64,000 nucleotides of DNA from a virus. Shown here in pieces: positions 1 to 21,400 of this stretch. The stretch spans positions 1 to 64,000 of the IMG/VR virus record IMGVR_UViG_3300008119_000003; one strand, written 5' to 3'. A program made the translations under genes and the position numbers. Below the pieces are notes generated by a model. That model saw nothing but the letters and a program-made list of their open reading frames with translations, was not told where the DNA came from and made no database searches. Positions within the stretch are counted from its first letter, which is position 1; each line of letters starts with the position of its first letter.

Positions 1-1
1 A

Positions 2-3000: not shown

Positions 3001-3970
3001 CATTAAGGAAGGAGTCATCAATGGGGAAACTTTATTAGCTGAGGCTTTAGCTGATAATGGACAAAGCATTGAAGGTACTACTATAGATGCAGTAATGTAT
3101 AAGCTTTTTGTAAAAGACAAAGCTCTTGCAGAAAAAGTATACGATGATGCGTTAGCTAAAATGGAGGCTGCGGTTAATGCCGGAGATACTGTAGTAACAA
3201 CTATAGGACGATTTGCTCAGAAGGCTGATATGGTACTTATCCACACTAACGATAACGTAATTGTTGATAAAGCTGGTAAAGATGCTGTATCTAGAGTTAG
3301 AGCTTACGAAAGCGCAGCTAAGAAAACAAAGGTTAAAAGCAATATCCAGATCTTAGAGATTGACTCTCCTATTATAGACGTACTTACAGGAAAAGCTAAG
3401 GCTACATCTCTTAAAGAGAAGTACAAAGGCAAGGTAAAAGAAAGTATCGAGAATGCTAAATCTATGGAGGAGCTTGATGATATTAACAGAGAAACAACTT
3501 CTTTAATTCTTGAAGATGAGAACCTTACAGCTGAAGAGTTTAAGGAACTTATGAATAAAAAAATGCAGGAATTATCATCAAAAATTCCTACCTTTGAAGA
3601 AGTAGAGAAGAACGATTTAGTAGTAATGAAAGATAGAAAACAGTACGGTCGAAGCGGCATTGTACAAGTTCTTGGAAAGAATACTACTAACGGCACGGTT
3701 AAAGTAAAACGACTTAATTCAAATGAAGCTATGACTTTATCAAAGGAAGAATTCGAAAATGGTGCCGAGTACATGTATCGCGCAGGTACTGAGAAACTTG
3801 AACAAACTGTTACAATAACTGCTGACGAAAAACAAAACTCCAACTCTAATATGGAAAGCGCAGGAGACATTAATAATGTTGACGCTATCAGAGAAGATAT
3901 GGAAAAGGCGAAGAACTCTTCTGCCGAAGATATAGATGATGAATTTACTAACTCATTTGGCTGCGAATAA
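2..3970 (+). CDS. Giant virion cargo/ejection protein 1 (crAss-like), 5'-truncated by the window; contains degenerate zincin-like and SH3/KOW-like modules
   Basis: The frame is open from base 2 (first ATG at 41). It lies directly upstream of the virion RNAP with a TAATG overlap, is helical and Cys-poor, and has a Gly-rich hydrophobic stretch at the window edge. Confidence 0.7.
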   Translation, partial: SGQGAETFLSGFLMGGLVQGPQSLLTQAAPQLGKDLYNKYKNPQEYSKQKEERAAERAKITNFMNVLASDPNKVFDSISANIKAQKDFSEIMDRAEENGDKKEHGDAVQDSIFTNVQTLLDKGYIDLFTNQIEDYQKLNDNELAEAFGYTTQSGAKDEFNKDLRGRLDSILKKTNDIKARHEKYSSIKNPFAYDSDDFVERLDYFGFEEARKQAIYNEYTYDRAQSRMASLLEAVAADPVLAKAKAGRITSIFNEFQLDAELETLKDEIKIYAEGDAKQKEISAKKQRQYDSLLKIKNSMSNHGIEVERARKAAVSPEKTDEIKKDVITNESIGVGSTVSYQPRSGLPISGKVIKKTNTKVTIQYTDKNGEVKTKVVSINAKSLKGIGTSGQQLEIDFDGSDPASRNVDYFKKELKADLEEYLKVLAENSEDGGQPILSTDIDRIFSYLEDYLELGVDARAASMNVNLLNDPMYFSEAAKKFSAAAKAAQEIAAKKLQEAWDVYEARMQTNQLLRDIYEKFNVFFMPEEIDKLIKGESIPSVFIDAGTKKPIETNSLKYKEILEFLELFEEANGFTLAGKEISEEGAESFQRPYDFTEKDDTRTYKDFVKALGLDPKLKSQMVSTKDLLNYIIKNKFSKPGAKALARRLMTTVKDSDQIEISSTSSQAFTYSKTAGITIDLRYSSKDYGQMQVSLEYSVLNPMLQKIVEEGLLDDKFTKATTNLMDAVREYYEANRDSIKDPNLNAMFKFMLSSPQAFLSEALTNTVAQTELEAIPYKNTNKNLWEEVLDAFREFLAKLLGFSQSSSNTALTEAIGIISNKVENRPIIGSTEDTGITPTDTSAAAITVDTPFNDMPRDLQTMLRAELKIFNQEQISNNKPIIPDSEITRFIKQNDRAKKLIDNYNKRNGLTGTPTSTPATEPTAFTVTVDGYNINTYEDGNIDVTKDGEVIAVGLANEAEAMAAIEQHKKEQRPVFKIKQKFKGLLIYTTLASSVDDLDSIKEGVINGETLLAEALADNGQSIEGTTIDAVMYKLFVKDKALAEKVYDDALAKMEAAVNAGDTVVTTIGRFAQKADMVLIHTNDNVIVDKAGKDAVSRVRAYESAAKKTKVKSNIQILEIDSPIIDVLTGKAKATSLKEKYKGKVKESIENAKSMEELDDINRETTSLILEDENLTAEEFKELMNKKMQELSSKIPTFEEVEKNDLVVMKDRKQYGRSGIVQVLGKNTTNGTVKVKRLNSNEAMTLSKEEFENGAEYMYRAGTEKLEQTVTITADEKQNSNSNMESAGDINNVDAIREDMEKAKNSSAEDIDDEFTNSFGCE

Positions 3971-6900
3971 TGATTAACTGTACCCTAAGTAACAAACAAT
4001 TAAGGATCCTTCGTACTAAAATTGCGAAGGATCTTTTGACTTATGTAGATAACAACGAAAACTTTGATCTTAAAGATTATCTATCTAAAATCTACAATCA
4101 AGTTAACGATGCTACAAAGAACCAGAACTTAGCTTTGGACTATGCTAGAGTATCTCTTCCTTTTATCAAACAGCTTTTAGGAGTAGACAATACTCTTGAG
4201 AACTTACCTGAGCAAGGATTAAATATTGCTGAGCTGTACAAAACAACTAGATTAGCTGGAGACGATAAGAATGGTTTTCAAGTCGTAGTAGACTACTTAG
4301 GTGTTACTATTAATCCCGCTAAGAATCTTGGTGAGGTAAAAAAAGATCTTGAAAAAGAAGAAGATCAAGAAAAAGCAGCTAAGAAAAATGTCGATAATCG
4401 CGTAGTTCCTACTATCTATAAAGAGACAAGAAAGCCTTATGATCCTGTATCAACTAGTATGCAGGAAGTTTTATCTGGTAAACCGGAATCGGTAAGAGAT
4501 CCTAGAATGAAAATATACAGTGACATTACCAAAATGATACTGGATAAAATTCCACTTGGTGGAGCAAAGGACTTTGAAGGAATTGAATATCCAGGAGTAA
4601 ACGGGGGGATCTTTGTTAAGATGATGCGATACAATAGAATCGCAGTTAATGATACCTTTCCTCATGTAAAAGAGGTTATCGAATCAGGTGTAGACCAAGA
4701 CTATATAATTGAAGACTATAACTTTGCTTTTGTTTATGTACTAACCGATAAAGACGGCAATGAACTTCGCTTTAACGATAAGGGAGAAGTTACCAAAAGT
4801 GGAACTTTAGTTTATTACAATACTCGATTTCTACCAAAGAGAGGATCGAATAAGTTATTTGATGTAGACAATGTTACTAATACCCAAAAACCTATAGAGG
4901 TTGCTAAAAATTTAGGTATTTCTATTGAGGAAGCAACAGAATTTTTAAGAAGTGGCTTCGAGGAATTAGCAAAGGCTTACGATTATATTAGATTAAAAGA
5001 TGGTAATAGTATAATGTATTCTATTACCGGCGGAAGCAAAGGTGCTATTGTGGATAATAACCGCAAGATGGTTCCGTTTCAAACTAGAATTTTTAGAAAC
5101 GAGCCCCTAAGCTTTGCCTTTTATGCTAAAGACAAACTAAAACCTGGAGATTTCTCAGGGGTATATGTAACCGGTGCACAATCTAACTACCCGGTATTAA
5201 TAGCTCCTAGAAGTATATCTGATTCGCTTGCAACAGACTTGGTAGAAATGTTAACGAAATCCGTTAATAAATCTGATGGTCAGCCGCTAAGTAATAAAGA
5301 GAAAGTTGACATACTTTCTACATACATACTTAACTCTGTTAAAGATATACAGTATGGTGTAGATAAAAGCAATGGGGCAATATACATAAAGCTAGAGGGA
5401 CAACCTTTAAAGCTTTCATCGCCAGAAGCAGCTGATACATTAAAGAACGTTTTCCTAAAACAACCTAGTGGATTTGATAGAAAAAACATTATAGCATTAC
5501 CGCTAGCTAATAGCAACAAAAATGTTACAGTCTTTTCTAGAAATCCTAATGGTACATTTAGCACAGAGTCTGTTCCGTACATGACGTACTTGGAGCAGAA
5601 TATGGACATGAACGTAGAGTTAGACGAAGACGGACTACTTAAACGTTATAACCCATACTTTAATCTTATGATTAACCTTGACAGTATGGGCAAGGTATTA
5701 TTAGATAATGGTAATGTAGACGAAAAAGAAGAGACTAATAATGAAAAGGTAGCTAGACTTAGAGCGGAGGAACAAATAGAAATTCTTAAGAAAATACCTA
5801 ACATAGATAGTTATAAAGTAAAAGGTAAGATTGATAGCAATCTTATGCCTGAAGATATTAAAAAAATATATCAGGAAATTTATGATAGATATGATGCTGT
5901 TATCACGCCTATACTAAGAGATCAGATAGAACTTGAGATAATGGAAACTCTTTCTAAGGTTCAAGATGTAGCAGCATTTACCGGGGCTAGAGATCTAACT
6001 CCAAAGGAACAAACCGAACAAGATAGAATTATAGCAGAGATTACAAAGAAGTATTTAGGAAGTTCTAAAAAAATAGCTAAGCCCGTAACTAATACTACAG
6101 AAAACAAACCAGAAGAGTTTGTTAATCATTCTGGAGGAGCATATGGCGGAGATACTCTTTGGGATATTATAGGAAGAAGATTTGGTGTAGTAGAACACAG
6201 ACATTATAGAGAAGCAAGTAATAGGAATCTATCTAAAAAACTTAGAGACTTTGGTGTATCAGCAACTGTCCTTACAAAGGAACAGATGGATACAGCCAGA
6301 CAAGAGATAAAAGACTTAATTAATAAAGATTACCCAGATACCGTAGAAGGAAACTTACAGGTAAGAAACTACTACCAAGTTGCTAATGCGGATTCTGTAT
6401 TTGCAGTTGCTCCAATTCTTAGAGTACATAAGGATACAAGAGGAACAGTAGTTAAAAAAATAAAGGCTGTAACGGGAGGAACGAATACAGCCGTGCAATT
6501 AGCTATAGCATTAAACAAACCTGTTTACATTTGGGATGCTGGTAGCAAAAGTTATGAAGGCACAGGAAGATGGTATACTTATGATTATTCTGTAGAACAA
6601 TTTGTGCCAACAGATACACCTACTCTTACTAAAAACTTTGCCGGCGTAGGTACAAGAGATGTCGAAGACTATGACGTTAAAGATAGATTTGATCAATGGG
6701 GACCAAGATTTCAGTATGTAGGAAAAGACATAGAGCTTGAGGCAATACAAGCAATTACCGATGTATATGAAAAAACTTTTGGTAGCAAACCCGAAGTAGA
6801 TCCATTTGTAAAAGCGGATGCTTTACCACCTATCGAACAAAATTTTGAAGATGGTGAGGGCGGTAGAACTATGCAGCCTCAGTTTAAAGGTAAGTCTGCA

Positions 6901-9900
6901 ATGGACTTAATTATATCTGGAGATAGAACTAGAACTACTAGAGCAAATACAGATATTACAAGAATGCTCAAAGACTATAATCTACCAAGTATTACTGCTC
7001 TTAAGGGTATGATTGTTAGAATGGTCGACAGAAACGGTAGACAAGTATATGCAAGAATAACAGACGTCTCTAGATTTAATAAAACATACCAGCTTGACAC
7101 GTGGCAGAAGGAGGGATGGGACGAGGCTACAACAGATAAGCTTTTAGGTAAGTACCCATACGCTATAGAATTTGAGGTAGTTAAAGATCCTGGTCAAAAA
7201 ACTGCTACAGAAGTTAAAACTGTATCGGAAGACTATGGTGTTGTACAAGCTGAAACTAATCCTACGGAAAGCGAAAAGCAAGCAGACATTGATTTAATTA
7301 AGCCACATATACAAAGACAGGCCTTTAAAGAAAATGTAGGTAAGTATGCTAATGAAATGTTCCATTACTCTTTAAGATGGGGTAGAAAAAACTATAACTT
7401 CTTTGTATTAAAAGATGGAAAGTATGTTAAATCTACAATAGCTGACGAGGGATCTCAACTATATTCTAAAGATAGAAATGGTAATTACGTTAAATCAAAT
7501 AGAAAAGATAAGGCTGCTTATAACAACGGATTAATTAATCCATTAGATATTGATTCTTTTGCAGGAAAAGGAGATATGTATGGCTATGATCTAGTAGATC
7601 AGAACGGAGATCCTCTTCCATCGATTTCAGAATTACAACCGATTATAGATAAAATTGAATCTGCTCTCGGTATAAGCATGAGAAATTACGACTCTGTCAT
7701 AGGTAATATTTATTTACCTGGAGAGTATGTATATCCACATAAGGATACTTCTGAAAGTAAATCAGCAAGAAAGTATCCTGTTATTGTATACAGTATTGGT
7801 AACGATGCTGGATTAGGTATAGTGGATAATAACGAAGGTAAGATGACTTTTGCTAACGAGTATGATGCAAAATGGTTACCAGCTGGTGAAAAATTAAAAG
7901 GTTATACAAATGAGGTATTAACAAAGCACGGTAGTATCTATACTTTCGGTATGGGCGGTAAGGGTAGATTTGAATTAACTCATAGTACGCCGATTAATTC
8001 TAAGAAAGATACTCCTCAATCTCCGATAACATTACCAAACGGAAAAGTAGTAACTAACTATACTATTACTCTTACTTTTAGAAGAGCTGCAGACCTAGCA
8101 GAAGGTATGGCAGATTCTCCTACAACGTCTGATAAAGTTAGCGCAGTAGAAAAGAAAGCTGCAGAAGTTGTACAGAAAGTAGAACCGCAACAGATATTCC
8201 GTAGAGGAAGATCAAGTGCAGATAGTAATATATTAGATAACTTGATGAACGATGACGACTTCATCGATAAAAACGGTAAGAACAAATTAGGTATTCAAGG
8301 TAATATTAAAGCAACTAGAGAACAGATTGCTTTAGCTAAAACCTGGTACGAGAATAGCCCGCTTAGCAAACACATACCATTTAAGGTAATGTTCAATGCT
8401 ATCAATACTGCTACTAAAAACGGTATTGCTCGTTGGGATGTAAACGGTATTACACTGTTTAAAGGATCGGATTACTCTGATCTATACCACGAAGCATGGC
8501 ACGGCTTTACACAGATGTTCTTGACTAAAGAAGAAAGAGATAAACTATATAACGAAGCACGATTAAACAAAGGATCGTTTGTAGCATTTGACGGAAGTAC
8601 TGTAACATTTGGAGCAGCTACTGATGAACAAATAGAAGAATACTTGGCGGAGGACTTCCGCGAGTATATGCTTGGTAAAGGAAAGAAAGTATTAGACAAG
8701 ACCCCGGTTAAGAAGAACATCTTCCAAAAGATATTTGAATTCTTAAAGGCATTGTTCGGTAAGACTAATGCTGATGACGTTATTACTAATGGTAACAATA
8801 ACAGCTATACCAACGAGCTATACGAGAAACTAAGAGTAGGAGATCTAAACCAGTTTACATTTAACCAGGCTAATAGAGTATTTACTACTTTGAATAAGGT
8901 AGTAACTACAACTACTCCTAAAGATAATACTACCCCAGCTAAACTAGGATACGAAGCCTCAGCATTAATTGGATCTACAGTAGATGCATTATTTGTTGAA
9001 GCTATCGCTAAGTTAAATGGCGGTAAGACACACGTATTTACTACAGCGGCTATACGTACAGTAAAAGGACGTACCACAGTATATAAGTACGTATTACAAG
9101 AACTAACTAAGCAGTTAGAGAACGTGTATCTAGACAAACTCGACATGGAGGCTAAAGGACTAGATACACAAGATATAAACTATGAACTAGATACTCTATC
9201 CTATGCGGTAAAACACTTCGGTAAGCCCGATGAGGTTCTTAAACCAACAGGGGTAATGAAGTACCACATGGAGACTAGTAAGTTTATGGAGTTTGACGAT
9301 CGACAAATAGTAGAGCTGAATAAGATCGATGATAGTAAACTAACTATCAAGAACGAGTTCGAATCTAAATCGGGTAACGAAATGTCGGGTAAAGAGAAAG
9401 CCTCTCCTATCCTTCTATATACTATCCGTGGTTTATATGCTTACGATACTGACGGTAGCGTCAAGACTAACAGATTAGGTTTCCCTAAACTGATGGACCC
9501 TAATGCTGCATGGAACCGTATATATAATATTACAGACGGAGCTAGAAACATCCAAGATGTTTATAACAGATTGTCTGAGGCAGCGGTAGACTACCCTGCT
9601 ATTGCGCAATTCCTTGAGAAGGTAGGACCTCCTACTAATATGGAGACTAGCTCTCAACAGTTATGGACAGATATTACAAATGTCCTTACTATGAAGCGTA
9701 TCCCTCTTATGGCAGTACGCACTACTTTCTCTTCAGAGTTCGTAGAAGCTGTAGATCCTGAGACCGGAGAAGTTTTAATGGAGGGTAACAAACCTATCAA
9801 AGAAACAGTAACTACGTTTAAGGTTACTCCTACAAGAGCAGGTGGTGAATACAGCAAGGTTGGTGCTAAATGGGATAACTACTTTGCAGTAGCCGCACCT

Positions 9901-12900
9901 AATCAATATATTACTGTAGGCGCAGATAATGTTAATACATTAAATATCCAGGCTGTTGCGGAAAACTTTGACCGTACTTTATCTATAAACAAGTTAGATA
10001 CTGTATTTGAATTTATGGAAGCTATAGGTATGCCGTTGGAGAATAACTCTACCGTACGTAAAGCTTTAGCAAATAAAAATAACCCGACATTCAAAGCTAT
10101 ATACGATTTACATACGACTATATTATACGGTATCTATCCTTATAATAATATGTATGCCGGAGCAAATCCGATTGTAATAAAAAAGCCTAGCGACTTAGTT
10201 AAGGAATACAAGGTTAACATAGATGACTTTAAGGTAGCTAATAAGCTTAGCGGTATCTCAATTAAGTATAATACTATACAGAACTTCCACCTTACTTGGT
10301 CTGATGACTTCTCTGATACTACTGTATCTAACGCTGAGGGAGAAAACCAATACGAGAAGTCTCTACGCGGTACGTTAATGAACCAGATAGATAGTATTAA
10401 TACTGCTGATACTATAACCGAACTTACACAAGAAGGCGTTAGTAATGCGGAAGACTTAAGTATGAATCATCTTGCTAAGTCACGTAATCCTTTTATGAAG
10501 ACTTCAAAGTTCATGAGAAGATTATTTGACGAGAACGGAAAGAAGATTGTATACGAATCAGCATGGGGAGATAGAGTAAGATCTCAGATCGAGCTTCTAA
10601 ACATGTCTGGTACTTCTGTAGAAATAACTAACGTTAGAGGCCTTATAAATGAAAGTGGTATTGCCTCAGCTAATGCTGATGAGACTACTAAGATCTTACA
10701 AGACTTTTACATGATGATGTTATACGGCGTATCAGAAGCTACACGTCATGCTGATAAGTCTACTACATACTTATTTAGATTAGTTGCTACTGATCCAAAA
10801 GATGAAAAAGGTAAAGTACTAAAGCACTTAATTGACCTTTCATCATTTACACAGAGATCAAATCCTGATGCGCCGTCTGCAGGTAGAATAGAATTTACCA
10901 AAGATCTAGTTAAACATTTATGTGCTGAGTACGAACGTATTCAGAAACTTAAAGACGGAGATCCTGCAGGAGTAGCTGTAGTAGGTGATAAAACTTATGC
11001 CGAGAAAGGATCAGAGTTTGTAATCTTTGACAAGATACTAGATACTGATACTAAGACTAAGATAAAGAAAGCTAGAACATCATCTTTATCAGAACCTGTT
11101 CTTACCGCAGAAGACCTTTACAAATATCTTAATGATCCTAAAAGGGTAGATCTAAAAAATTCTATTGAGCAACAAATAGGAACTTACCTAACAAGCCAAG
11201 TAAAAGAATTTGAGGAGTCGTTAACTGAAATGGGATTCTATAACAATCCGCAGTTATATAGTCAAGTTTTAAATAAGATGGGAGTTAGAAACCCAGAAAG
11301 TATTACAGAAGAACGTAGAAGCCAGTTATTAAAAGACATGGCTGAGGCTTATGTAGCAAATGCTTGGTCACAAAATCTTGAAGTTACTTTATTATTTTAC
11401 GGAGACCCTGCATTATATCCTGGCGAAGCTGACTTCTTTAAACGTAATGCTGGTCTAGGTGCTACAGGAACAATTCCTCGTACTGATATTTACATGCAAC
11501 AGTATGTAAATGCTAAACTTGCAGCTAATAGCGAAGCAGCAAGACTTGGATTTAAACCGAAGAAGTTTGGTAAGACTATGACGTCTGCTGTAATGGAAGA
11601 TGCTAAAACTCAATCGGTATATTACGATGAGTATTTAAAAGAGGCAATAGAGTTTGAGACAGAGCGTCTTACAAAACTTAAGGCTTCAGAAGAGCAGATC
11701 GAAAAAACTGTAAAAGCTATAACAAAACGATTTGGCGAGTATAAGAAAATGACAGAGGGCGATGGTCAAGGTTGGATAAACTTTGATGCATACCGTGCAT
11801 TACTTATGTCACTAAACAAATGGACTAATACACAAGAATCCATTTATAATAAAATTGTTAATAGAGAAGAAGTTACTGAAGATATTCTTCAATTCTTCCC
11901 TGTTAAAAAGATGCAGTACTGGGGACCTCTTAAGACAGATGGTCTTCCTGTGTACGGTTTCCACAAGTTCTCTTTGATGCCTCTTATTCCTAACATTATT
12001 CAAGGTAAGAACTTGCAGAGTCTTCAGTCAAAAATGTTAGAGCAGGGAATCGACTATGCTTTATTAAAGTCTGGTTCTAAGATTAACACTCTTACTAAAG
12101 ACGGTGCTGTTGACAAGTTCTATAAGAATTCTAAGAGTAATACCGATAAGACCTTAGCAATCGAAGAAGAGGGCTTTGAGTTTACTCCTAACGAAATCTT
12201 TATGGATTACTTTAAAGATCAGTTAGAGGTACACGATCACTTTAATAACAAAGTTACTTTCTCTACTCAGCTTCGTAAACTTATCGAAGACGGTTTAATG
12301 GAGAACGGGGTTCCGACAGACTGGAAACCTTTTGACTTCTCGGATCCTTGGCAAAGAATACAAGCTTGGGAAGCGGCTTCAGATAGTGAGAAGATGTCAT
12401 CTAAAAACTACAAGAAGTTAATAAGATATGAGGCTAACCTTGAGGCATTAGTTCAACTTAAGAAAGATAAACTTGTAAAAGAGATTGGTTCTGATATGAA
12501 GAGCCTTCTTGATTTTGTTAAAAAAGAACTTACAAGACAAGAGTTATCAGATCATGAGATTAACTTTATAGACTACGACGGTATTACCAAAGAGCCTAAA
12601 CAAAGTTTAGACTTATCATTGTCTGCAGATAAAATAGAAAAGCTTTTAGTTTCTGTTGTACAGAAGCGCTTGATTAACCAGAAGATTACTGGAGAAACAT
12701 TAGTACAAGTATCTGGTGTAGGATTTGAAAACGCTAATAACAATATGCGTAATGCTACCGAAGAGGAAATTAAAAAGTATGGTACAAATGCAGGTTTACC
12801 TTTCTATCGTAAGAAGCCTGATGGATCTACCTCAGCAATGAAAGTTAAGATTGCACTTCAAGGCGGATTCAAAAAGTTATTGTACCATCCTGATGTAACA

Positions 12901-15900
12901 TCATTAGCTTCTAAAAATAACATTACTCCGCTTCAAGCTCTTAATACATTACTTAAAGATGAGAACTGGTTAGATAAACCAATTAACCCTAATCAAGAAA
13001 TATACGCCAAAGCATTTGCTAAACTGGATAGTACTAAAGGAGATTCTAAATTATTTATACTTAGATCAGAACTAACTCCAGAATTATTAAATGAGCTTAC
13101 TCCTGATACTAAGGGTGGTCAACGTGTTAAAGGTGGCGAGTACTACGGAATTAAAATTCTTGGAGACTACTATTCTCATAACACGGTTAAGTCTAAAGAC
13201 GGAGAAAATCTAGATATTATAGTTGTAGATAAAGTAGAAGACGCTGAAAATCAGTATCAAGAATATCTAAAGGGCGGTGCTAAAAACTTTACAGGAGTTT
13301 CTGAAGTAGAACCTGTAGATAAAAATAGATTGTTCATAACAATGGTAGCTGCACGTATTCCTGTGCAAGGTCTTAACTCTATGGAGTTCATGGAGGTATT
13401 TGAATTCTTACCAGAAGAAGCAGGTAACATTGTAATTCTTCCAGCAGAGATCGTAGCTAAGTCAGGTGGTGACTTTGACATCGATAAGATGTTTACTATG
13501 ATGCCTAACATTTCAGCTAAGTATAAAAAGATTTCTGATAAGAGTATCAAAGCTATTAGCGAGCAATTTGGTAGTGATGTAACACGAGAAGAAATAGAAG
13601 ATCTAGAAGAGAAGTATGCTGACCTAGATAATGAAGAAGCATTTACTGATGATGAGATGAAGATTTTAAACTTAGTAGATGTTTTATCAGAGGAAGAGGT
13701 TACTGTTAAACTAGATAAGAATAGAAAATCAGTTAAAGGTATTGAGAATGCTTTAATTAAAGATACGATAGGAATTCTTTCGATGCCTGAAAACAGAATC
13801 AAACTGATTACCCCTAATGGTATTGACATCCTTAAAGGTATTGCTGAGGACATGGCTTATATAGATAGAGGTGAAGAACCTGGAACTAGTAAGTCGCCAA
13901 CAGAAATATTTGAACTAGGTCGTAACTTATACAAACACCAGTCTAATAGTATTGGTAAAGCTGTACTCGGTATCATTGCTGTAGCAAACACGTTTAATAC
14001 TTTGTTTGCACGCACAGGATTAATTATGAGCAGCGATCGTATCATCACTTATAAGAAAGATGGTACTCCTGTATATGCCGATCAAAACCTATACTTGCCT
14101 CATAATTCTATTGACGGTAACATATCTTTATCTTCTGCTTATTCTACCGACTTAAGTAACCGTGTAGCTGATATCATTAACCAAATGATTAACGGAGCGG
14201 TAGACGTTGCAAAGGATGCATGGATCTTTGATATACAAGGTAACAAAGAGGTTATACCTTCATTGTTATTCCTGATCCAAGCAGGCGTACCGATTGACCA
14301 AGCAGTCTATTTTGTATCACAGCCTATTATTAAAGACTTCTTAGGTAAGCAACGTTTACTTAAGAGTAAGTTTGCTGTACCTATTGGTCAGGAGGATGTA
14401 GGATTATTCCACAGAATAGAAGCTCGTAACCAAATTCTATTTAACGTAGAAAATGGATTTACACAAGATCCTAAAAAATACTTGAGTAGTCAGGTATTCG
14501 GAGATACAAATGTTTTCGATAAGGCCCTTGTATGGAATCTTTTGGAAGAATTTGCTCCTAACCTAGAAGATTATTCAAAAGAAGATCTTAAGAAAAATCT
14601 AAAGAAAAAAGAAGGAGAAGGTTACAACGAATTGGACAGAGCAGTATTTACTCAGTTCATCATGATCCAAGAGATGGCTGGTCAGATTACACAGCTTACA
14701 CAGGGTCTTAAATTTGATAACGATAAGACAAGTACATTGCTCGATGCTCGCATGAAGATAGAGAAAATGAGTACTCTTACAAACGGTATTAGTGCAGAAT
14801 CAATTAGAAGAATTGCAGAAGAATCACCTATCAGTGCATTTAAAATCCAAGACTTTATAATCGAGCGATACCATAATTTATTCCCATTACGCGATAGTGA
14901 AGAAGTAAATAACTTTGTTCAAGATCTATTCCGTAGACAAGGGGATGGTAAAAACAAATCATTTGCAATTAAAAAAGCAACTGGTATGGATGACGAGACT
15001 TTACAAAGAACATTGAGAAATGATCTTATGAGTTTCCTATTCCAAAGATCATACTATAAATTTAATTCTAATACCAACACGTATCAAGGTAAAGATGTAG
15101 AGGTTGAGATAGAAGAGTTAAAGAATTTAAAGGCTGCAGCTAGAGTAAAAGAAGGTAAACTGTATATAGATAAAAAACAGATTAACAGTTTGTTTAGCAC
15201 AAAGCAGTATAGTAAACAAAGCGCCTGGCAGTTTGCTGCTCCGGTAGATAATATAATCTTTGACATGTACGATCCCGTAACAGGTAAACAATTATTTACC
15301 AAGTTCGTATTTGAAAGAGAAGTATTAAGAAGCTATCCTGAGAATTCTAAAGAGAATATCAGCAAGACAAAAGACTATGCGAAATATGTTGAGCAGTATA
15401 AGGCACAGCCTGATGAAAAGTATACAGCTGAATATAAAGCTTACGAGTCTGTACTTAGAGATAAAGCATTAGGTAACTTAAATCTTCACGGTTATTTATT
15501 CTACGGAGATAAAGCATATGGTCGTCAGATCATGCAGCTTAAAGAAAGTAATCCTAGCTTATTTGAAAAGTATTCAGTACTTGCAAACTTAGAAGCTGTA
15601 ACCAAACCTTACACAACTACTACTCTTACTAATTTAAAGTTTGCTAATACTCTGTATACAGAAGATGATCTAAACATCTACCATAACAACTTACAGGATC
15701 TAGCTAACCCTAGCGTTATTAAGTCAGAAGATCCTGTGGAGAATGCAAGAATATCAGAGCTATTCCAAAAGTTTGGTTTGTTCTCTTTATTGCAGTCAGG
15801 TACAGATACAAGAAGTACTTTCTCTATGATTCGTGCAGTACCGACAGAAATGTCTATGGCTCTATTTGAAAAACCATATAAGCAGTTTACAGAAGAGTTA

Positions 15901-18417
15901 AAGTATGATGAGATTGAAAGTTTATTACGCGATTATCAAAATACATTTGTTACAAGCCAGTATGCAAGAAGTAACTATCTAAGTAAGAAAATTAAAAACT
16001 GGGCTACTAACCCATTACTTAAAGGTGCTGTTGATGCTAATGGTAATATTCCAGATAATGTAATTTACAATCTGGATCCAGAAGCTCTTCAAAAAGCTAT
16101 GGAAGCTGCTGCTGAAGCAGAGAAAGCTGCTGAAGAACAAGAGGCTAGAAATGTAATGATAAAAGGTATACCTGTTAACTTAACACAGCTTGGTATATCA
16201 TTTACACCAAACGATCAGCAAGTAGAAGCTCTTAACAATATTGCGGAATTTATCAGCAAAGGTTACGATATGACTACTGATGATGTTACTAATAACATGT
16301 ATACTCTTATGGGATATGCTGGTACTGGTAAAACAAGTATCACTAAAATCTTACTGGAATACCTAAGAAAAAGAAATATTACTTACAGTGTTACAGCTAC
16401 TACACATAAAGCTAAAGGAGTATTGTCTAAAGCTATTGGTATGCGTACCAAAACTATTCATAAGTCTTTAGCCTTAGCACCTAAAATAGATCCTACAAGA
16501 GTTAGCTTAAAGGACCTAGAGCTAAATGTTGTTGCCTCTGGTGAATTTCCTACAGATGTTTTAATCATCGATGAGTCATCTTTCATTGGACCTGATCTAT
16601 TTAATTTCATAAAACGAAGAGCTGAGAAGAACCAACAGCAGGTAATTTTTATTGGTGACCCAGCACAGCTTAAGCCTGTAGCCAAAGAGAAAAGAAATAG
16701 AGTTGTATTAAATAAAGAAAACTCTCCTGTATTTAGAGAGGTATCTAATAAATCTGAACTTACTCAAGTTGAACGTCAGGCTGGAGATAATCCTTTGGGT
16801 CCAATCTTAGATTCTATTCGTAACAACATGAAGGAATCGTTGCCAACATTCGGCTACAAGTCTAAAGTTATTGGTAATGAAGGAATAGTATTTACGTCGT
16901 CATCTAGAGAATTTGCTAAGGATGTTGTAAAAGCTTTCCAATCAGAGGAGTTTAGAAATAACAGAAACTTTGTTAGAGCTATAACCTATGAGAACAGTCG
17001 AGTTGAAAAGCTTAACACTGCTATACGTAGAGGACTTGGTTACACTGAGCCTTATGTGGTAGGAGAAATCATGATGGGTTACAGTAACTATAAAAAACAA
17101 ATGGGTACTGATGATTACGCTATTAATAATTCAGTAGACTACATTATAACAAATATTGAATACGTTCCAAGCAGAAATGTTGGAGAAAAAGCATTAAAAG
17201 AATCTGGCCTAAACTTACAACCAATGGTGATGTCAGGATATAATATTACTCTTCAGGATATATCCGATTCTAAGATTGAACCTGTTGAAGTATTTATGTT
17301 AGACAATAACAATAGCGAAGAACAGTTTAGAGAACTAGGCCGCCAAAGTGAAGCACTAGCAGCACTTGGTGAAAAGAGTACTAAATTGTTTAAGCACTGG
17401 TATAGATTTATGGAATCATTTGCTCTAAACAAAAATATAGTAGCAGATGAGATTGATCCAGAAACAGGAGAACCAAGAGTTGTTGTACTTAAAACTCTTG
17501 ACTACGGTTATGCTCATACTATTCACAAGTCACAAGGTTCTACGTATACAAACATATTTGTAGACTTAGATAATATTAATGTATCTCAAGACATAGAGGA
17601 AAGAAATCAAATGAAGTATGTTGCTCTTTCCAGAGCTACGAATATTGCCTATGCTCTTACAGAAAATGCAGAAGGAGATGCACCTCAGATTGACTTTAAC
17701 GGAGACTTCGTTAATAAAACAATAGTACCATCTGAAACTGATAAACTATATAAGACAGAGGCAGACATACAAACCTCTAAGCTTATGACTATCTTACAAG
17801 ACAACAGTACCGGAGTTAGAACATTTAAATATACGTTGGATGCTAAATCTGGTACAGCTGGTAAAGGAGTTCTTACTGAAGAGACTGCTAGAATGATTAG
17901 ACAAGATTATCCAAATGCTTTAATGGTATTCAATGACTTCACAGACCTGAAAGGAAATACTGCTGGAACAAACAGCGTATGGAGAGCATTAGGTTCTAAC
18001 GGTATCGGAATTTCTACTAAGGTGGGACCTTCTCCAACTAAGGTAGGATCAGATAAAATTAATATGTCTGAGGCATTGACTGATGAAACTCTAGATGATA
18101 ACAAGAAGTTAATTGACAAAGAAATTAAAGCTATCAAAGAAAAGCTTGCTGAGCCAGGTCCTCAAAAGTATCTAGTATTCGATGACTTTGGTTATGGTCA
18201 ATACATGATCGGGTATGTAGAGAATGCTCCAACGATCAGCAGACCTACTTTAAAAGGATCTGCCCCACAAACATTCTTGTATCTATCAGAACAATTATAT
18301 CGTAACTTTGGATACATTAATCCTCATTACTTATTACTTCCTCAAGGAAGAGCTGTTGTCCAAGAAGGTCAGCCTATTACAGATGATGAGATTATTGAAC
18401 AAAATAAAAAATGTTAA
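3970..18417 (+). CDS. Virion-packaged multidomain RNA polymerase (crAss/phi14:2 gp66-like) with fused SLOG-like, ASCH-like, 2OG-Fe(II) oxygenase, zincin, SF1B helicase and macro-like domains
   Basis: Catalytic GGDFDIDK at 13471-13485 preceded by RIPVQG; KRNAG, EGDGQGWI and STQLRKLI motifs; HEAWH at 8488-8502; Walker A GYAGTGKT at 16312-16335; TIHKSQGSTY and YVALSRA helicase motifs. Confidence 0.9.
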   Translation: MINCTLSNKQLRILRTKIAKDLLTYVDNNENFDLKDYLSKIYNQVNDATKNQNLALDYARVSLPFIKQLLGVDNTLENLPEQGLNIAELYKTTRLAGDDKNGFQVVVDYLGVTINPAKNLGEVKKDLEKEEDQEKAAKKNVDNRVVPTIYKETRKPYDPVSTSMQEVLSGKPESVRDPRMKIYSDITKMILDKIPLGGAKDFEGIEYPGVNGGIFVKMMRYNRIAVNDTFPHVKEVIESGVDQDYIIEDYNFAFVYVLTDKDGNELRFNDKGEVTKSGTLVYYNTRFLPKRGSNKLFDVDNVTNTQKPIEVAKNLGISIEEATEFLRSGFEELAKAYDYIRLKDGNSIMYSITGGSKGAIVDNNRKMVPFQTRIFRNEPLSFAFYAKDKLKPGDFSGVYVTGAQSNYPVLIAPRSISDSLATDLVEMLTKSVNKSDGQPLSNKEKVDILSTYILNSVKDIQYGVDKSNGAIYIKLEGQPLKLSSPEAADTLKNVFLKQPSGFDRKNIIALPLANSNKNVTVFSRNPNGTFSTESVPYMTYLEQNMDMNVELDEDGLLKRYNPYFNLMINLDSMGKVLLDNGNVDEKEETNNEKVARLRAEEQIEILKKIPNIDSYKVKGKIDSNLMPEDIKKIYQEIYDRYDAVITPILRDQIELEIMETLSKVQDVAAFTGARDLTPKEQTEQDRIIAEITKKYLGSSKKIAKPVTNTTENKPEEFVNHSGGAYGGDTLWDIIGRRFGVVEHRHYREASNRNLSKKLRDFGVSATVLTKEQMDTARQEIKDLINKDYPDTVEGNLQVRNYYQVANADSVFAVAPILRVHKDTRGTVVKKIKAVTGGTNTAVQLAIALNKPVYIWDAGSKSYEGTGRWYTYDYSVEQFVPTDTPTLTKNFAGVGTRDVEDYDVKDRFDQWGPRFQYVGKDIELEAIQAITDVYEKTFGSKPEVDPFVKADALPPIEQNFEDGEGGRTMQPQFKGKSAMDLIISGDRTRTTRANTDITRMLKDYNLPSITALKGMIVRMVDRNGRQVYARITDVSRFNKTYQLDTWQKEGWDEATTDKLLGKYPYAIEFEVVKDPGQKTATEVKTVSEDYGVVQAETNPTESEKQADIDLIKPHIQRQAFKENVGKYANEMFHYSLRWGRKNYNFFVLKDGKYVKSTIADEGSQLYSKDRNGNYVKSNRKDKAAYNNGLINPLDIDSFAGKGDMYGYDLVDQNGDPLPSISELQPIIDKIESALGISMRNYDSVIGNIYLPGEYVYPHKDTSESKSARKYPVIVYSIGNDAGLGIVDNNEGKMTFANEYDAKWLPAGEKLKGYTNEVLTKHGSIYTFGMGGKGRFELTHSTPINSKKDTPQSPITLPNGKVVTNYTITLTFRRAADLAEGMADSPTTSDKVSAVEKKAAEVVQKVEPQQIFRRGRSSADSNILDNLMNDDDFIDKNGKNKLGIQGNIKATREQIALAKTWYENSPLSKHIPFKVMFNAINTATKNGIARWDVNGITLFKGSDYSDLYHEAWHGFTQMFLTKEERDKLYNEARLNKGSFVAFDGSTVTFGAATDEQIEEYLAEDFREYMLGKGKKVLDKTPVKKNIFQKIFEFLKALFGKTNADDVITNGNNNSYTNELYEKLRVGDLNQFTFNQANRVFTTLNKVVTTTTPKDNTTPAKLGYEASALIGSTVDALFVEAIAKLNGGKTHVFTTAAIRTVKGRTTVYKYVLQELTKQLENVYLDKLDMEAKGLDTQDINYELDTLSYAVKHFGKPDEVLKPTGVMKYHMETSKFMEFDDRQIVELNKIDDSKLTIKNEFESKSGNEMSGKEKASPILLYTIRGLYAYDTDGSVKTNRLGFPKLMDPNAAWNRIYNITDGARNIQDVYNRLSEAAVDYPAIAQFLEKVGPPTNMETSSQQLWTDITNVLTMKRIPLMAVRTTFSSEFVEAVDPETGEVLMEGNKPIKETVTTFKVTPTRAGGEYSKVGAKWDNYFAVAAPNQYITVGADNVNTLNIQAVAENFDRTLSINKLDTVFEFMEAIGMPLENNSTVRKALANKNNPTFKAIYDLHTTILYGIYPYNNMYAGANPIVIKKPSDLVKEYKVNIDDFKVANKLSGISIKYNTIQNFHLTWSDDFSDTTVSNAEGENQYEKSLRGTLMNQIDSINTADTITELTQEGVSNAEDLSMNHLAKSRNPFMKTSKFMRRLFDENGKKIVYESAWGDRVRSQIELLNMSGTSVEITNVRGLINESGIASANADETTKILQDFYMMMLYGVSEATRHADKSTTYLFRLVATDPKDEKGKVLKHLIDLSSFTQRSNPDAPSAGRIEFTKDLVKHLCAEYERIQKLKDGDPAGVAVVGDKTYAEKGSEFVIFDKILDTDTKTKIKKARTSSLSEPVLTAEDLYKYLNDPKRVDLKNSIEQQIGTYLTSQVKEFEESLTEMGFYNNPQLYSQVLNKMGVRNPESITEERRSQLLKDMAEAYVANAWSQNLEVTLLFYGDPALYPGEADFFKRNAGLGATGTIPRTDIYMQQYVNAKLAANSEAARLGFKPKKFGKTMTSAVMEDAKTQSVYYDEYLKEAIEFETERLTKLKASEEQIEKTVKAITKRFGEYKKMTEGDGQGWINFDAYRALLMSLNKWTNTQESIYNKIVNREEVTEDILQFFPVKKMQYWGPLKTDGLPVYGFHKFSLMPLIPNIIQGKNLQSLQSKMLEQGIDYALLKSGSKINTLTKDGAVDKFYKNSKSNTDKTLAIEEEGFEFTPNEIFMDYFKDQLEVHDHFNNKVTFSTQLRKLIEDGLMENGVPTDWKPFDFSDPWQRIQAWEAASDSEKMSSKNYKKLIRYEANLEALVQLKKDKLVKEIGSDMKSLLDFVKKELTRQELSDHEINFIDYDGITKEPKQSLDLSLSADKIEKLLVSVVQKRLINQKITGETLVQVSGVGFENANNNMRNATEEEIKKYGTNAGLPFYRKKPDGSTSAMKVKIALQGGFKKLLYHPDVTSLASKNNITPLQALNTLLKDENWLDKPINPNQEIYAKAFAKLDSTKGDSKLFILRSELTPELLNELTPDTKGGQRVKGGEYYGIKILGDYYSHNTVKSKDGENLDIIVVDKVEDAENQYQEYLKGGAKNFTGVSEVEPVDKNRLFITMVAARIPVQGLNSMEFMEVFEFLPEEAGNIVILPAEIVAKSGGDFDIDKMFTMMPNISAKYKKISDKSIKAISEQFGSDVTREEIEDLEEKYADLDNEEAFTDDEMKILNLVDVLSEEEVTVKLDKNRKSVKGIENALIKDTIGILSMPENRIKLITPNGIDILKGIAEDMAYIDRGEEPGTSKSPTEIFELGRNLYKHQSNSIGKAVLGIIAVANTFNTLFARTGLIMSSDRIITYKKDGTPVYADQNLYLPHNSIDGNISLSSAYSTDLSNRVADIINQMINGAVDVAKDAWIFDIQGNKEVIPSLLFLIQAGVPIDQAVYFVSQPIIKDFLGKQRLLKSKFAVPIGQEDVGLFHRIEARNQILFNVENGFTQDPKKYLSSQVFGDTNVFDKALVWNLLEEFAPNLEDYSKEDLKKNLKKKEGEGYNELDRAVFTQFIMIQEMAGQITQLTQGLKFDNDKTSTLLDARMKIEKMSTLTNGISAESIRRIAEESPISAFKIQDFIIERYHNLFPLRDSEEVNNFVQDLFRRQGDGKNKSFAIKKATGMDDETLQRTLRNDLMSFLFQRSYYKFNSNTNTYQGKDVEVEIEELKNLKAAARVKEGKLYIDKKQINSLFSTKQYSKQSAWQFAAPVDNIIFDMYDPVTGKQLFTKFVFEREVLRSYPENSKENISKTKDYAKYVEQYKAQPDEKYTAEYKAYESVLRDKALGNLNLHGYLFYGDKAYGRQIMQLKESNPSLFEKYSVLANLEAVTKPYTTTTLTNLKFANTLYTEDDLNIYHNNLQDLANPSVIKSEDPVENARISELFQKFGLFSLLQSGTDTRSTFSMIRAVPTEMSMALFEKPYKQFTEELKYDEIESLLRDYQNTFVTSQYARSNYLSKKIKNWATNPLLKGAVDANGNIPDNVIYNLDPEALQKAMEAAAEAEKAAEEQEARNVMIKGIPVNLTQLGISFTPNDQQVEALNNIAEFISKGYDMTTDDVTNNMYTLMGYAGTGKTSITKILLEYLRKRNITYSVTATTHKAKGVLSKAIGMRTKTIHKSLALAPKIDPTRVSLKDLELNVVASGEFPTDVLIIDESSFIGPDLFNFIKRRAEKNQQQVIFIGDPAQLKPVAKEKRNRVVLNKENSPVFREVSNKSELTQVERQAGDNPLGPILDSIRNNMKESLPTFGYKSKVIGNEGIVFTSSSREFAKDVVKAFQSEEFRNNRNFVRAITYENSRVEKLNTAIRRGLGYTEPYVVGEIMMGYSNYKKQMGTDDYAINNSVDYIITNIEYVPSRNVGEKALKESGLNLQPMVMSGYNITLQDISDSKIEPVEVFMLDNNNSEEQFRELGRQSEALAALGEKSTKLFKHWYRFMESFALNKNIVADEIDPETGEPRVVVLKTLDYGYAHTIHKSQGSTYTNIFVDLDNINVSQDIEERNQMKYVALSRATNIAYALTENAEGDAPQIDFNGDFVNKTIVPSETDKLYKTEADIQTSKLMTILQDNSTGVRTFKYTLDAKSGTAGKGVLTEETARMIRQDYPNALMVFNDFTDLKGNTAGTNSVWRALGSNGIGISTKVGPSPTKVGSDKINMSEALTDETLDDNKKLIDKEIKAIKEKLAEPGPQKYLVFDDFGYGQYMIGYVENAPTISRPTLKGSAPQTFLYLSEQLYRNFGYINPHYLLLPQGRAVVQEGQPITDDEIIEQNKKC

Positions 18418-18428
18418 ACTAAGTAAAG

Positions 18429-21400
18429 ATGAGCGTTTGTCCATTACCAAATTCACTAAACGAATTAACCGAATATGCTAAGCAGATAGGCTTAGGTCCA
18501 AGAGCTTCTACGGAAGTTCTTCGGGCTTTTATGCAGAAGAATAGAAATCTTCCTATGGGAGCAGAACCTATTGTTCCGACTAACGAAGAGTTCAAAGCTT
18601 TAATGGATAATATGGACGTATGGAATACTGAGGGCAGACAAGTAATTATGCCCGATCTATACGCAGGTTTTGGAGATAACATGAATGCTTTTCCAGAGTA
18701 TAGTGTTTTAGTAAATCCTATAAAACTTGATGCACAATCTCAAGCTAATTTAAAAGCAGCTGCTACGGTAACTGTATTAGCACAAAAACTTAGTAGTAAC
18801 TTAGGTGTACCTTACCAGTTTATAACCCCGGCAGAAGCTGCAGAATTGACAAAAAATGTCAATACTTGGAAGGGACAATCAGCATTCTTCTTCGGAGGAG
18901 TTGTGTACATGATACCAGAATTAGTCACAGAGAAGTCTGTGCTACACGAATTTGCTCACCCCCTTATACGTGCTATAAGAATCAGCAATCCTACTTTGTT
19001 TACTAAACTAACAAATGAACTTAAGAATAGTCCAAACGGTACAAGACTGCTAGCTGAAGCTAGAGAAGAGTATTCTGATTTAACAGCAGACGATCCTATT
19101 ATTTTAGAAGAGGCTTTAGTAAAATCATTAACTGCTCAGGCTGTAGATAAAACTGATTCAGCATTTAATAAATTCATTAAGAATTTCTTATTTGCATTAC
19201 GTCAGATACTAAGAAAGGTATTCGGCGATATGCCACAAAAAGTTAAAGTAGAAAACCTAGATCAGAATACTACACTTGCTGAGCTAGGAGACATGTTAAT
19301 ATTAGAACAGTTCGACATAAATCTAGAGGGTGTTAGCCAAGAAGATGTAGCCGCTTATATTAATGATGTTAATGAATATGTAAAAGCATTACAAGACTTT
19401 AACAAGAACGATCTGCAGCAAAGCACAAACCTTTTCTTTGAGATGGTTAAAAAACAAATCAATCTTTTAGAAAAGAATAAGGACTACGACGGGATGAAAA
19501 AGATCCTAAAGGATGCATTCGACAGACCTGACCTAGAACAACTCTTTGCTAACTTAGCACCTTACCAAGATATATCTTCTTTCCTTACTAACGAAATGAG
19601 TAAGTTAAAAAGAGATGCAGAGTTTGCAAGAAAACATACAGAGGCTTTTGTAAATAGTTTGATCCGCACTAAGTACATGATAAACCGTTTAAACAAAGAG
19701 CTTGTTCGTTTAGTAAAGGATCCTAACTCTAAATCAAACGTAGCAACTGTATTCTATTATAACAACATCATCAATTACTGGGAGAATTTCCTAGATGATT
19801 TTCAAAAGAAGCTTACGGATGTTGAGAACGGCGTTGATTCAAGCAATCCTATATTTGAATTAATGGGATCTATTGCCAGCGAAATATCAATTGCCCGAAC
19901 TAATACTAGTAAAATTTATTTTGCAGGAACATCTGAGATTATCAAAGAGACTCTTGGACCAATGCAAGAAAGAATCGATCAGAGATTTAAAGATCTGATG
20001 GATGACTTAAAGAAAAGAGGAGCATCTCAAGAGATAATGGAGTTACGTCAAAAAGATTATTGGGGATTATCAGGAGATAACCTTAGAACTTTCTTGTCGT
20101 TAAAACAAAGAGTAGAGGCCGGAGAAAACCTATCAGGTTCTGAGAATGAAGTATACGAAAGACTTAGAGATATAAGCTATAAGGAAGGAGCATACTTAAC
20201 TGAACAGAAAATAGAATTTTTAATGCTAGGTCGTTTAGGAGACGCTCATGCTCTTAACTCTTTCCTAGAAGGTTTTATATATAACCAAGACCCTGTAGTA
20301 TTTGGATTTGCAACATTTGTCAAGAACAGAATGACCGATGTATTCACAACTGCTCAGCAAAAGGGTAATGCATTTTTAACTAATGTAAAGCCATTACTAG
20401 AGGCAGCAGGCTATAACCAATCTAACCCTGCAGAGTTTGGTAGGAGAGCTACGTTCTTAGACAAGAAGGGAGGTACAAATAAAGATACCGGAGTATTTGA
20501 AGGAAAGGAAGTACATACTCTCCTTAATCCATTCAAAGGTTATAGAGCTGACGTTGCTAAAATGCGAGACGAGATTCGTGCTGCAGAAATAGTAGCAGCA
20601 CAGACAGGTAATACTGATGAAGTACTAGCACTTAAGTTAAAGAAACAAAAGTTTGAAAGAGAGTACTTCCATACAGATTTTACAAAAGAATATTACGAAC
20701 GTTACGAAGTTTTCCGAAAAGGAGATAACGATATTATAGGTGCTAAGGCTGAGATGGCAAGACAAGAAATACTTGCTAAGATTCAGAATCTTACTACAGG
20801 TATGGGTAACCAAACCACATTAGAAAGACTTGATGCCGCAGAAGAACTAGATACATTATGGAGACAGTATCGTCAATTACATTCTAACTATTTACCAAGC
20901 GGTGAATTAAAAAGAAAAGAAGACCTAGAGATAGCCGAGCGACTAAGAGAGTTCCGAGCAATATCTCGTGAATTATATAGAGAGGAATTACTTCCAGATC
21001 TATTTACTAATTCGTTAGCTGCTCACGAACAGTTTCTTATTGACAGAAAGTATGAGAAAAACAGTCCTGCATTCAATCGTCTACGTGAGAAATGGATAAT
21101 GCAGAATACTAGAATTAAAATAAAAGATTCTTTCTACGAGAAACAAAAACAAATTCTAGATGAAATAAAAGCTATTACGGCAAAGCTTCCTAAAGATTCT
21201 CAAATAGAAGCTACTATAAGTGAACTATACGAAAAACTTAGTCAGCTTATGAGCCCATATCGTGATGATGATATGCAGCCAGAAGCTACAGCAATGGACA
21301 TTAGAAACATTGCTGAGATTAAAAGAGTAGAACAGTTACTTGATCTAGCTAAAAAGAATGTAGCAAAAGCATCTGGTCTAACTGCAAATGAGCATGAGAT

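Follow-up and report, generated by a model that had tools for sequence, protein, structure and literature searches.

The RNA polymerase module and its cysteines

The window analysed here is the first 64 kb (64,000 nucleotides, nt) of a 120,320-base contig, IMG/VR record IMGVR_UViG_3300008119_000003. The last 114 bases of the contig equal its first 114 (120207-120320 and window 1-114), and the viral genome is therefore 120,206 bp long and circular or terminally redundant, with a G+C content of 36.8%. The window carries three very large genes on its + strand, P1, a gene for a giant protein with an RNA polymerase (RNAP) core, referred to here as the giant, and P3 (Table 1). P1 extends past the left edge of the window and spans the contig ends; its start is at genome position 118540, its first in-window ATG is at 41 and, read round the circle, it encodes 1878 amino acids (aa). 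On the strength of its homology to gp66 of phage phi14:2 and its DFDxD motif, the giant is a crAss-type virion RNA polymerase, and by analogy with cultured relatives P1, the giant and P3 probably make up the virion-packaged, host-injected 'RNAP module' of a crAss-like phage.

The three proteins are strongly depleted in cysteine (Cys). Counting full-length P1 there are 5 Cys in 8601 residues, and the part encoded in the window has 5 in 8032 residues (1309 + 4815 + 1908). The other 92 open reading frames (ORFs) of the genome contain 313 Cys in 25,224 residues (1.24%), from which about 107 would be expected in the three proteins (Poisson P ~5e-39). Four of the five lie within the 30 positions that form the four adjoining ends of P1, the giant and P3 (P ~7e-10 for at least four of five), and among the other ORFs a Cys occurs in the first 6 residues of only 3 of 92 and in the last 9 of 10 of 92. 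The fifth, Cys2318 of the giant, is absent from the close homologues P0064, P0066 and P0067 and is aligned to a tyrosine in P0168. Chance is excluded as the source of this depletion and placement. The first-pass annotation of the window had described Cys confined almost entirely to the adjoining ends of the three proteins and had proposed that they are joined C-terminus to N-terminus by disulfides or metal bridges; on re-reading the sequence, all five Cys codons were at the coordinates it gave and the placement was as described.

Table 1. Features of the P1-giant-P3 region of the window.
Feature	Position	Strand	Basis
P1, C-terminal 1322 codons of 1878 aa	1..3970	+	ORF read round circular contig
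P1 Cys1877 (TGC), penultimate, ..FGCE, only Cys of P1	3962..3964	+	Sequence; kept in 33/36 homologues
TAATG, stop of P1 overlapping start of giant	3968..3972	+	Sequence
Giant virion RNA polymerase with accessory domains, 4815 aa	3970..18417	+	ORF; 6VR4 match; Pfam domains
Giant Cys4 (TGT), MINC	3979..3981	+	Sequence; 114/120 homologues with Cys in first 8 residues
AlkB-like 2-oxoglutarate (2OG)-Fe(II) oxygenase domain, giant residues 1202-1371	7573..8082	+	Pfam, under curated cut-off
HEAWH, second HExxH motif, inside giant	8488..8502	+	Motif; kept in 28%-identical homologue
Giant Cys2318 (HLCAEY), sole internal Cys, unconserved	10921..10923	+	Sequence, homologue comparison
DFDID, catalytic DFDxD motif of crAss-type virion RNAPs	13471..13485	+	Motif, giant residues 3168-3172
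Superfamily 1 (SF1) helicase module (AAA_30/PIF1/UvrD_C_2), giant residues 4105-4558	16282..17649	+	Pfam
Giant Cys4815 (TGT), final residue, ..EQNKKC, after predicted short helix	18412..18414	+	Sequence, model
P3, 1908 aa, zincin-type HExxH	18429..24155	+	ORF, motif, weak fold match
P3 Cys4 (TGT), MSVC, only Cys of P3	18438..18440	+	Sequence; position 3-6 in 59/62 homologues
HEFAH, invariant HExxH of P3 (H173 E174 H177, plus invariant E228)	18945..18959	+	Alignments

Conservation of the terminal cysteines

Database searches returned 62 homologues of P3, 120 of the RNAP protein and 36 of P1, at identities from 97-100% down to 23-25%. A Cys was scored as terminal when it fell in the first 8 residues (N-terminal) or the last 9 (C-terminal). 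A tabulation of this kind across crAss-like cargo gene clusters had been put forward in the first-pass annotation, and in it the terminal Cys prove to be conserved. An N-terminal Cys is present in 114 of the 120 RNAP homologues and a C-terminal Cys in 117, and 94 have no Cys beyond a terminal pair. Among the 36 P1 homologues, 33 have a Cys at the C-terminal end, the other three being fragments of 768-879 aa, and P3 homologues have an N-terminal Cys in 59 of 62, where it is the sole Cys of 54; the Cys4 column of P3 is invariant in an alignment of 37 sequences. The outer ends of the chain, the N-terminus of P1 (0/36) and the C-terminus of P3 (0/62), never carry a Cys. Across all 218 homologues, which amount to 641,354 residues, 323 of the 357 Cys are terminal, and the four terminal Cys are kept down to 24-28% identity in proteins with nearly no others.

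The pattern was also read from DNA at the gene junctions. Among 80 IMG/VR loci fetched with the P3 alignment, 74 adjacent pairs of large ORFs were examined, and both Cys are present at 73 of these RNAP-P3 junctions (63 distinct peptide pairs). The sole miss, in L038, is no true junction, since it arises from a frameshift within the P3 gene. The P1 alignment retrieved 35 loci, one of them cut before the junction, and here both Cys are present at 36 of 36 junctions between P1 and the next protein (25 distinct); the intergenic gaps are -1 to +13 nt at 35 junctions and -10 at one. At the RNAP-P3 junctions the Cys codons are TGT in 127 cases and TGC in 20, and the residue slides between 0 and 7 positions from the C-terminal end and between positions 3 and 6 from the N-terminal end. 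The use of both codons and the sliding position indicate selection on the residue and not on a nucleotide motif. A cause at the nucleotide level, such as translational coupling or an RNA motif, was rejected on these grounds and because crAss001 and DAC15 encode their P1 homologues on the other strand.

Some homologues depart from the rule. The P3 homologues P0036 and P0054 have no Cys, and five RNAP homologues (P0146, P0151, P0164, P0089 and P0093) have no N-terminal Cys. Two other apparent exceptions were discarded. P0078, scored as having no C-terminal Cys, comes from a gene that is split in L026, where a 361-aa tail ORF still ends ..NKKC, and in L062 the P3 N-terminus (MAC..) is present in a frameshifted gene. 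RNAP or P3 genes are split by a frameshift or interruption in L026 (at 8744-8914), L038 (at 4809-4825) and L062 (near 9209), and the outer pieces retain their terminal Cys.

Two details of the first-pass annotation did not extend to the relatives. The acidic DDE segments that it saw before both C-terminal Cys are specific to this lineage, the RNAP tail across relatives being a short helix of the form acidic-x-hydrophobic-hydrophobic-K-x-C. The gene order along which it would have linked the proteins is not essential either; in crAss001 (gp47) and DAC15 (gp078) the P1 homologue is encoded on the opposite strand and its single Cys is still at -2.

Inserted links, fusions and rearrangements

Five loci have an additional protein in the series, inserted independently in each, and every inserted protein has a Cys at both ends. 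These are a 574-aa protein in L065 (Cys 3 and 572), one of 739 aa in L073 (Cys 5, 287 and 734), one of 195 aa in L081 (Cys 3 and 195), one of 515 aa in L106 (Cys 5 and 515) and one of 602 aa in L127 (Cys 3 and 601).

The opposite change, fusion of P1 and RNAP into one polypeptide, is found in eight records: cr50_1, cr10_1, cr4_1, cr7_1, cr118_1 and cr273_1, all Suoliviridae, together with cr108_1 and Flavobacterium phage Fpv1. The fused proteins are 4,400-5,800 aa long (about 3,860 aa in cr108_1), and their domains are the same and in the same N-to-C order as in the window, the gp47-like parts lying N-terminal to the RNAP, with a peptide bond in place of the Cys pair of the window. None has a Cys at its N-terminus. 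At the next break, to P3, seven of the eight keep the pair, with a C-terminal Cys on the fusion and a next protein that begins M-x-C or similar. When the joints of the seven fusions other than Fpv1 were placed by blastp, five had no Cys within about 100 residues of the joint. A single polyprotein is also mentioned by Drobysheva et al. (bioRxiv version).

In p-crAssphage and crAss002 the arrangement is different again. There the protein with the zincin motif leads, with ..SFSCM or ..SFVCS at its end, and an RNAP protein starting MSC follows. For crAss002 gp33 the MSC start appears only when translation is begun at the Met of annotated residue 33. The annotated start (L095 17088-17190) is probably 32 codons early, and Met33 gives MSCTPSN.., matching MSCGN.. 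of p-crAssphage gp44. Across the inserted, fused and rearranged sequences as a whole, the Cys follow the polypeptide breaks and not particular domains.

Several further features of these gut phages were recorded. The smaller cargo-region protein gp30 of crAss002 (557 aa; L095 6393-8066) has a lone Cys at -7 (..RCGG..) without an obvious partner, and p-crAssphage gp48 (264 aa, three Cys) has the same ..RCGG.. tail, at -5. The cargo genes of cr4_1, cr7_1 and cr273_1 (L090, L091 and L093) carry between 12 and 148 TAG codons in frame and stop at TAA, a pattern that fits reassignment of TAG in late genes. The gut crassvirus records (L084-L095) have more internal Cys in the RNAP module than aquatic ones; cr7_1 has 24 and cr273_1 has 22 in about 7,400-7,800 aa, compared with none in phi14:2 and one in the window. 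Weaker selection against stray thiols in anoxic habitats may account for the extra residues.

Cultured relatives and structural precedents

P1 matches crAss001 gp47 and phi14:2 g067 in position, size and single C-terminal Cys and would be their homologue, and P3 is the homologue of phi14:2 g065 and crAss001 gp49. The sets g067-g066-g065 and gp47-gp50-gp49 are probably homologous throughout to the three window proteins, with the DFDxD motif, a zincin motif in the third protein and the same rule for terminal Cys, which the cultured phage DAC15 follows as well. The Cys of phi14:2 are residue 1797 of 1797 in g067, residues 3 and 2179 of 2180 in g066 and residue 3 in g065; those of crAss001 are residue 2339 of 2341 in gp47, residues 5, 1334 and 2404 of 2412 in gp50 and residue 5 in gp49. 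The window proteins differ in being about twice as long as these counterparts and in having extra helicase and AlkB-like domains. Virion presence is established by mass spectrometry only for phi14:2, whose three proteins are all annotated in the record as virion-detected (MS/MS), and for crAss001. The crAss001 proteins are described as 'RNA polymerase-associated' cargo proteins in the cargo zone of the capsid, with a proposed copy number of about 6 per virion (PMC10172136). Several disulfides have been modelled in the crAss001 tail and portal vertex (PMC10172136), so disulfides do form in crassvirus particles.

The closest precedent is in the cyanophage A4. In the Anabaena phage A-4L record (NC_024358), gp27 (1717 aa) has Cys 1715 as its only Cys and gp26 (1114 aa) has only Cys 5. 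According to the cryo-electron microscopy study of A4, a disulfide between Cys1715 and Cys5 stabilises the insertion of the gp27 C-terminal helix into gp26 (PNAS 2025, PMC12002296). As in the window, these are consecutive ejection proteins with a Cys near the upstream C-terminus and another at about position 5 of the downstream protein. A4 differs in being a T7-like podophage with one link between two proteins and no RNA polymerase, whereas the window has two links, and its relatives up to three or four, joining a virion RNAP to its neighbours; the bond seen in A4 would be present in the window phage by analogy.

In coliphage N4 the RNAP and its flanking domains form one chain (PMC13434306). 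Its gp50 is described as a single 3,500-residue 'beads-on-a-string' ejection protein whose N-terminal, polymerase and C-terminal parts are loosely connected (PMC13434306). Like the window giant, it is a virion RNAP of giant size, and it leaves the particle by way of a short tail; unlike the three chains of the window it is one polypeptide and needs no joints. N4 gp50, gp51 and gp52 (3500, 644 and 150 aa; L133 14524-27524) have no Cys in 4,294 residues, and the N4 DNA polymerase has 1.4% Cys. The polymerase fold of gp50 is T7-like and unlike the crAss type. The lack of Cys in the N4 ejection proteins makes Cys absence the baseline and the terminal Cys additions at chain breaks, and ejected proteins in general seem to avoid Cys. 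According to the same N4 study, how the three crassvirus proteins relate to the N4 domains 'warrant[s] further investigation' (PMC13434306).

Literature searches, with the Extended Data of PMC10172136 outside their scope, found no paper tying terminal Cys or disulfides to crassvirus RNAP or cargo proteins, and the word 'cysteine' has no occurrence in the texts of PMC10172136 and 10.1101/2020.03.07.982082. The pattern appears to be a multi-link variant of the A4-type head-to-tail disulfide, and as such it is new relative to the literature searched.

Domains and predicted structure

Residues 3124-3478 of the giant match PDB entry 6VR4 (phi14:2 gp66; phmmer E 5.9e-24), and all 32 tblastn matches to its core are crAss-like phage records. 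DFDxD is named as the catalytic motif of the crAss-type virion RNAP in 10.1101/2020.03.07.982082. The AlkB-like domain scores E 1.3e-5 and 26 bits, against a Pfam cut-off of 31.2. The second HExxH of the giant occurs as YHEAWHGF, is conserved in a 28%-identical homologue and may be a second zincin-like site. The giant is a protein of the 'polyvalent' type. Accessory domains vary among the RNAP homologues, whose lengths range from about 3,100 to 4,900 aa; precomputed Pfam labels among them are PIF1/AAA_30 helicase, AlkB-like 2OG oxygenase, DUF1768/NADAR, PF25176, ART-PolyVal PF18760 and AAA_33 kinase.

P1 and P3 had no PHROG or Pfam match, and a megablast of window 3000-6000 against the phage collection gave none. 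The zincin residues H173, E174, H177 and E228 of P3 are invariant in alignments of 40 and of 37 sequences. In a model of P3 residues 1-420, residues 100-270 resemble a lethal-factor-like zincin fold weakly (VIA-align, Z ~7 over 150 aligned residues). In the wide VIA-align comparison all rows had Z < 8, with the lethal-factor and Certhrax rows spanning the HExxH domain and the rest covering helical hairpins. The same model found nothing in the PDB with Foldseek at E up to 0.001, and a P3 profile searched against PDB sequences found designed coiled coils only and no A4 chain at E up to 1. Chain 9k2v_E of the A4 pre-ejectosome aligned to the P3 model at Z 6.7, among many unrelated rows; like them it covers only a helical hairpin, and it is not counted as a match. 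The motif and fold of P3 fit the label 'zincin-like' that is given to phi14:2 gp65 (bioRxiv 10.1101/2020.03.07.982082).

In the model of the giant's final 300 residues the chain closes with a helix (290-299) followed by the Cys (mean predicted local distance difference test, pLDDT, 79.8), and residues 1-10 of the P3 model have a mean pLDDT of 69. A co-fold of P3 residues 1-700 with the last 170 residues of the giant gave a best score of 0.10 against a mark of 0.32 and was run without controls, and it argues neither for nor against binding.

The genes around the module were also inspected. A 181-aa ORF after P3 (window 24173-24718) matches phrog_3000 (E 1.7e-35) and an endolysin PHROG (E 1.2e-16). 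Upstream of P1, outside the window, three consecutive large ORFs (1324, 967 and 1094 aa; genome 108313-118540) have zero Cys, and in relatives the ORF adjoining P1, which starts MATY.., has either none or exactly two, at 128 and 133/134. A 2286-aa ORF (genome 101411-108271, outside the window) has four Cys only, in two CX4C pairs near its ends (196/201 and 2106/2111), which may be a metal site tying both ends together.

A proposed disulfide-linked cargo chain

The explanation we favour, with a probability of about 0.6, is that disulfides between the Cys at their facing termini staple P1, the RNAP giant and P3 head to tail into one thread. It draws on the sequence pattern, its conservation, its behaviour at fusions and fissions and the structural precedent of A4. 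The reading of the first-pass annotation is partly supported. Its core, the head-to-tail link through Cys, has strong comparative support in the conserved pairs, bare outer ends, inserted links and fusions and a structural precedent in A4; a disulfide in place of a metal bridge, ordered packaging or ejection and release in the reducing cytoplasm are its conjectural parts. From these observations we infer the docking of helices, the bond with its chemistry and timing, and a role in ejection, as follows.

Like other ejected phage proteins, those of the module are purged of Cys, probably because stray thiols in a dense, oxidised capsid would cross-link proteins that are due to unfold and thread through the tail. 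Wherever the module is divided into separate chains, the preceding protein keeps a Cys 0-8 residues from its C-terminus and the following one a Cys at position 3-6. The helix at the C-terminal end of one protein would dock on the N-terminal region of its successor, and the two thiols would oxidise to a disulfide once the particle leaves the reducing cytoplasm. P1, the RNAP and P3 would then be stapled into one linear thread of about 8,600 residues, functionally equivalent to the single-chain or fused versions in other phages. With the Cys at the extreme ends, each joint would measure at most two chains across, and that for a few residues only, so that portal and tail could admit the thread as a single string. 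In the host cytoplasm the bonds would be reduced and the three proteins released.

A more tentative extension, which we would sooner doubt than adopt, is that the chain works as a redox-latched train. The thread would travel through the tail in a set order, and reduction in the host cytoplasm would uncouple it, with the RNA polymerase freed and possibly activated. Fusion, by a peptide bond, and a Cys pair, by an S-S bond, would be interchangeable evolutionary solutions to one need.

A number of points weigh against the disulfide-linked chain. No bond has been observed in any crass-like phage, and the cargo proteins are described as not resolved in the crAss001 map (PMC10172136). Sequence alone cannot separate a disulfide from a metal bridge, nor hetero- from homo-pairing. 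Many of the homologues are related, and their counts are not counts of independent events. The gut is an anoxic habitat, in which spontaneous oxidation is less obvious. A search of the phage's own genome for the thioredoxin family gave no match; with no thioredoxin-fold gene found, nothing encoded here would catalyse the oxidation. A search of the same genome for Erv1/ALR also gave no match, but neither did its control, so this result is uninformative. Two of the seven mapped fusions have Cys near the predicted joint, at 2180 in cr4_1 and at 2570 and 2625 in cr7_1. In cr273_1, gp35 stops at a genuine TAA and has no Cys nearer than 49 residues to its end, and gp36 keeps its MFC start. Finally, p-crAssphage gp47 (857 aa; L094 5588-8161) has a lone Cys at -1 without an obvious partner.

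Alternative explanations

Some of these exceptions could be accommodated if the disulfides form elsewhere, either as homodimers (P3-P3, P1-P1 or between RNAP chains) or as bonds to capsid, portal or other cargo that anchor the cargo in the head. With about 6 copies per virion proposed for crAss001 (PMC10172136), identical ends could meet, and the lone C-terminal Cys of p-crAssphage gp47 and crAss002 gp30 and the N-terminal Cys of cr273_1 gp36, which has no near-terminal partner, would fit. The bookkeeping of the Cys is harder to reconcile with independent anchoring. N-end and C-end Cys are gained and lost together at each break, as seen in fusions without an N-terminal Cys and, in five of seven, without Cys near the joint; each of the five inserted links adds one of each kind; and the outer ends are bare (0/36 and 0/62). 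Head-to-tail pairing predicts all this and independent anchoring does not require it, and A4 shows hetero pairing directly. We consider other partners unlikely.

A smaller likelihood is given to metal, either as an ion such as Zn2+ bridging the facing thiols or in a 'cysteine switch', where a terminal Cys caps the zinc of the P3 HExxH or the giant HEAWH and keeps a peptidase latent until ejection. The invariant HExxH plus Glu of P3 with its weak lethal-factor-like zincin fold, the second conserved HExxH of the giant and the acidic residues before both C-terminal Cys are in keeping with this, and a metal bridge needs no oxidising environment, which would suit gut phages. Yet one catalytic zinc takes one thiolate, which leaves four or more terminal Cys and the double-ended extra links unexplained, and there is no HExxH in P1 or in the extra links. 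In p-crAssphage and crAss002 the upstream protein carries its HExxH some 200 residues before its C-terminus (1743 of 1957 and 1814 of 2020), and the Cys still sit at the chain break and do not track the motif. No switch motif of the matrix metalloproteinase (MMP) type is apparent around the Cys, and the sole solved case of the pattern, A4, is a disulfide.

Other thiol chemistry, meaning acylation or another modification after injection, a processing signal of a polyprotein ancestor or a thioester-type ligation, is very unlikely. A Cys three residues from the end in 17 of 73 RNAP tails gives a superficial likeness to a CaaX box, but the Cys can lie anywhere from 0 to 8 residues from the end, with differing neighbours, and CaaX-like prenylation was rejected because of the variable spacing. 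Lipidation at a lipobox was rejected too, since neither a signal peptide nor a lipobox precedes the N-terminal Cys. Separate genes need no cleavage site, and such chemistry would not explain why N-end and C-end Cys come and go together.

That the pattern has no function and reflects chance or mutational bias in an AT-rich genome, where Cys is rare in general, can be dismissed given the 1.24% Cys of the other ORFs, the improbable placement, the use of both codons and conservation that extends over hundreds of proteins down to 24% identity.

Significance

Crassvirales are the most abundant phages of the human gut, and how their approximately five cargo proteins, including a multi-subunit virion RNA polymerase, are arranged in the head and delivered through the tail is an acknowledged open question. 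The rule, a Cys pair wherever the polypeptide is broken and no Cys elsewhere, is conserved in all crass-like lineages examined and offers a concrete model of cargo organisation. It accounts for giant proteins that are otherwise free of Cys, and it joins the crassviruses to the one structurally proven head-to-tail disulfide, that of cyanophage A4. The rule is also an aid to annotation, as it corrects the start of crAss002 gp33 and flags genes that are split or frameshifted. If the more tentative redox-latched train is true, the topology of the cargo chain would be readable directly from any crass-like genome.

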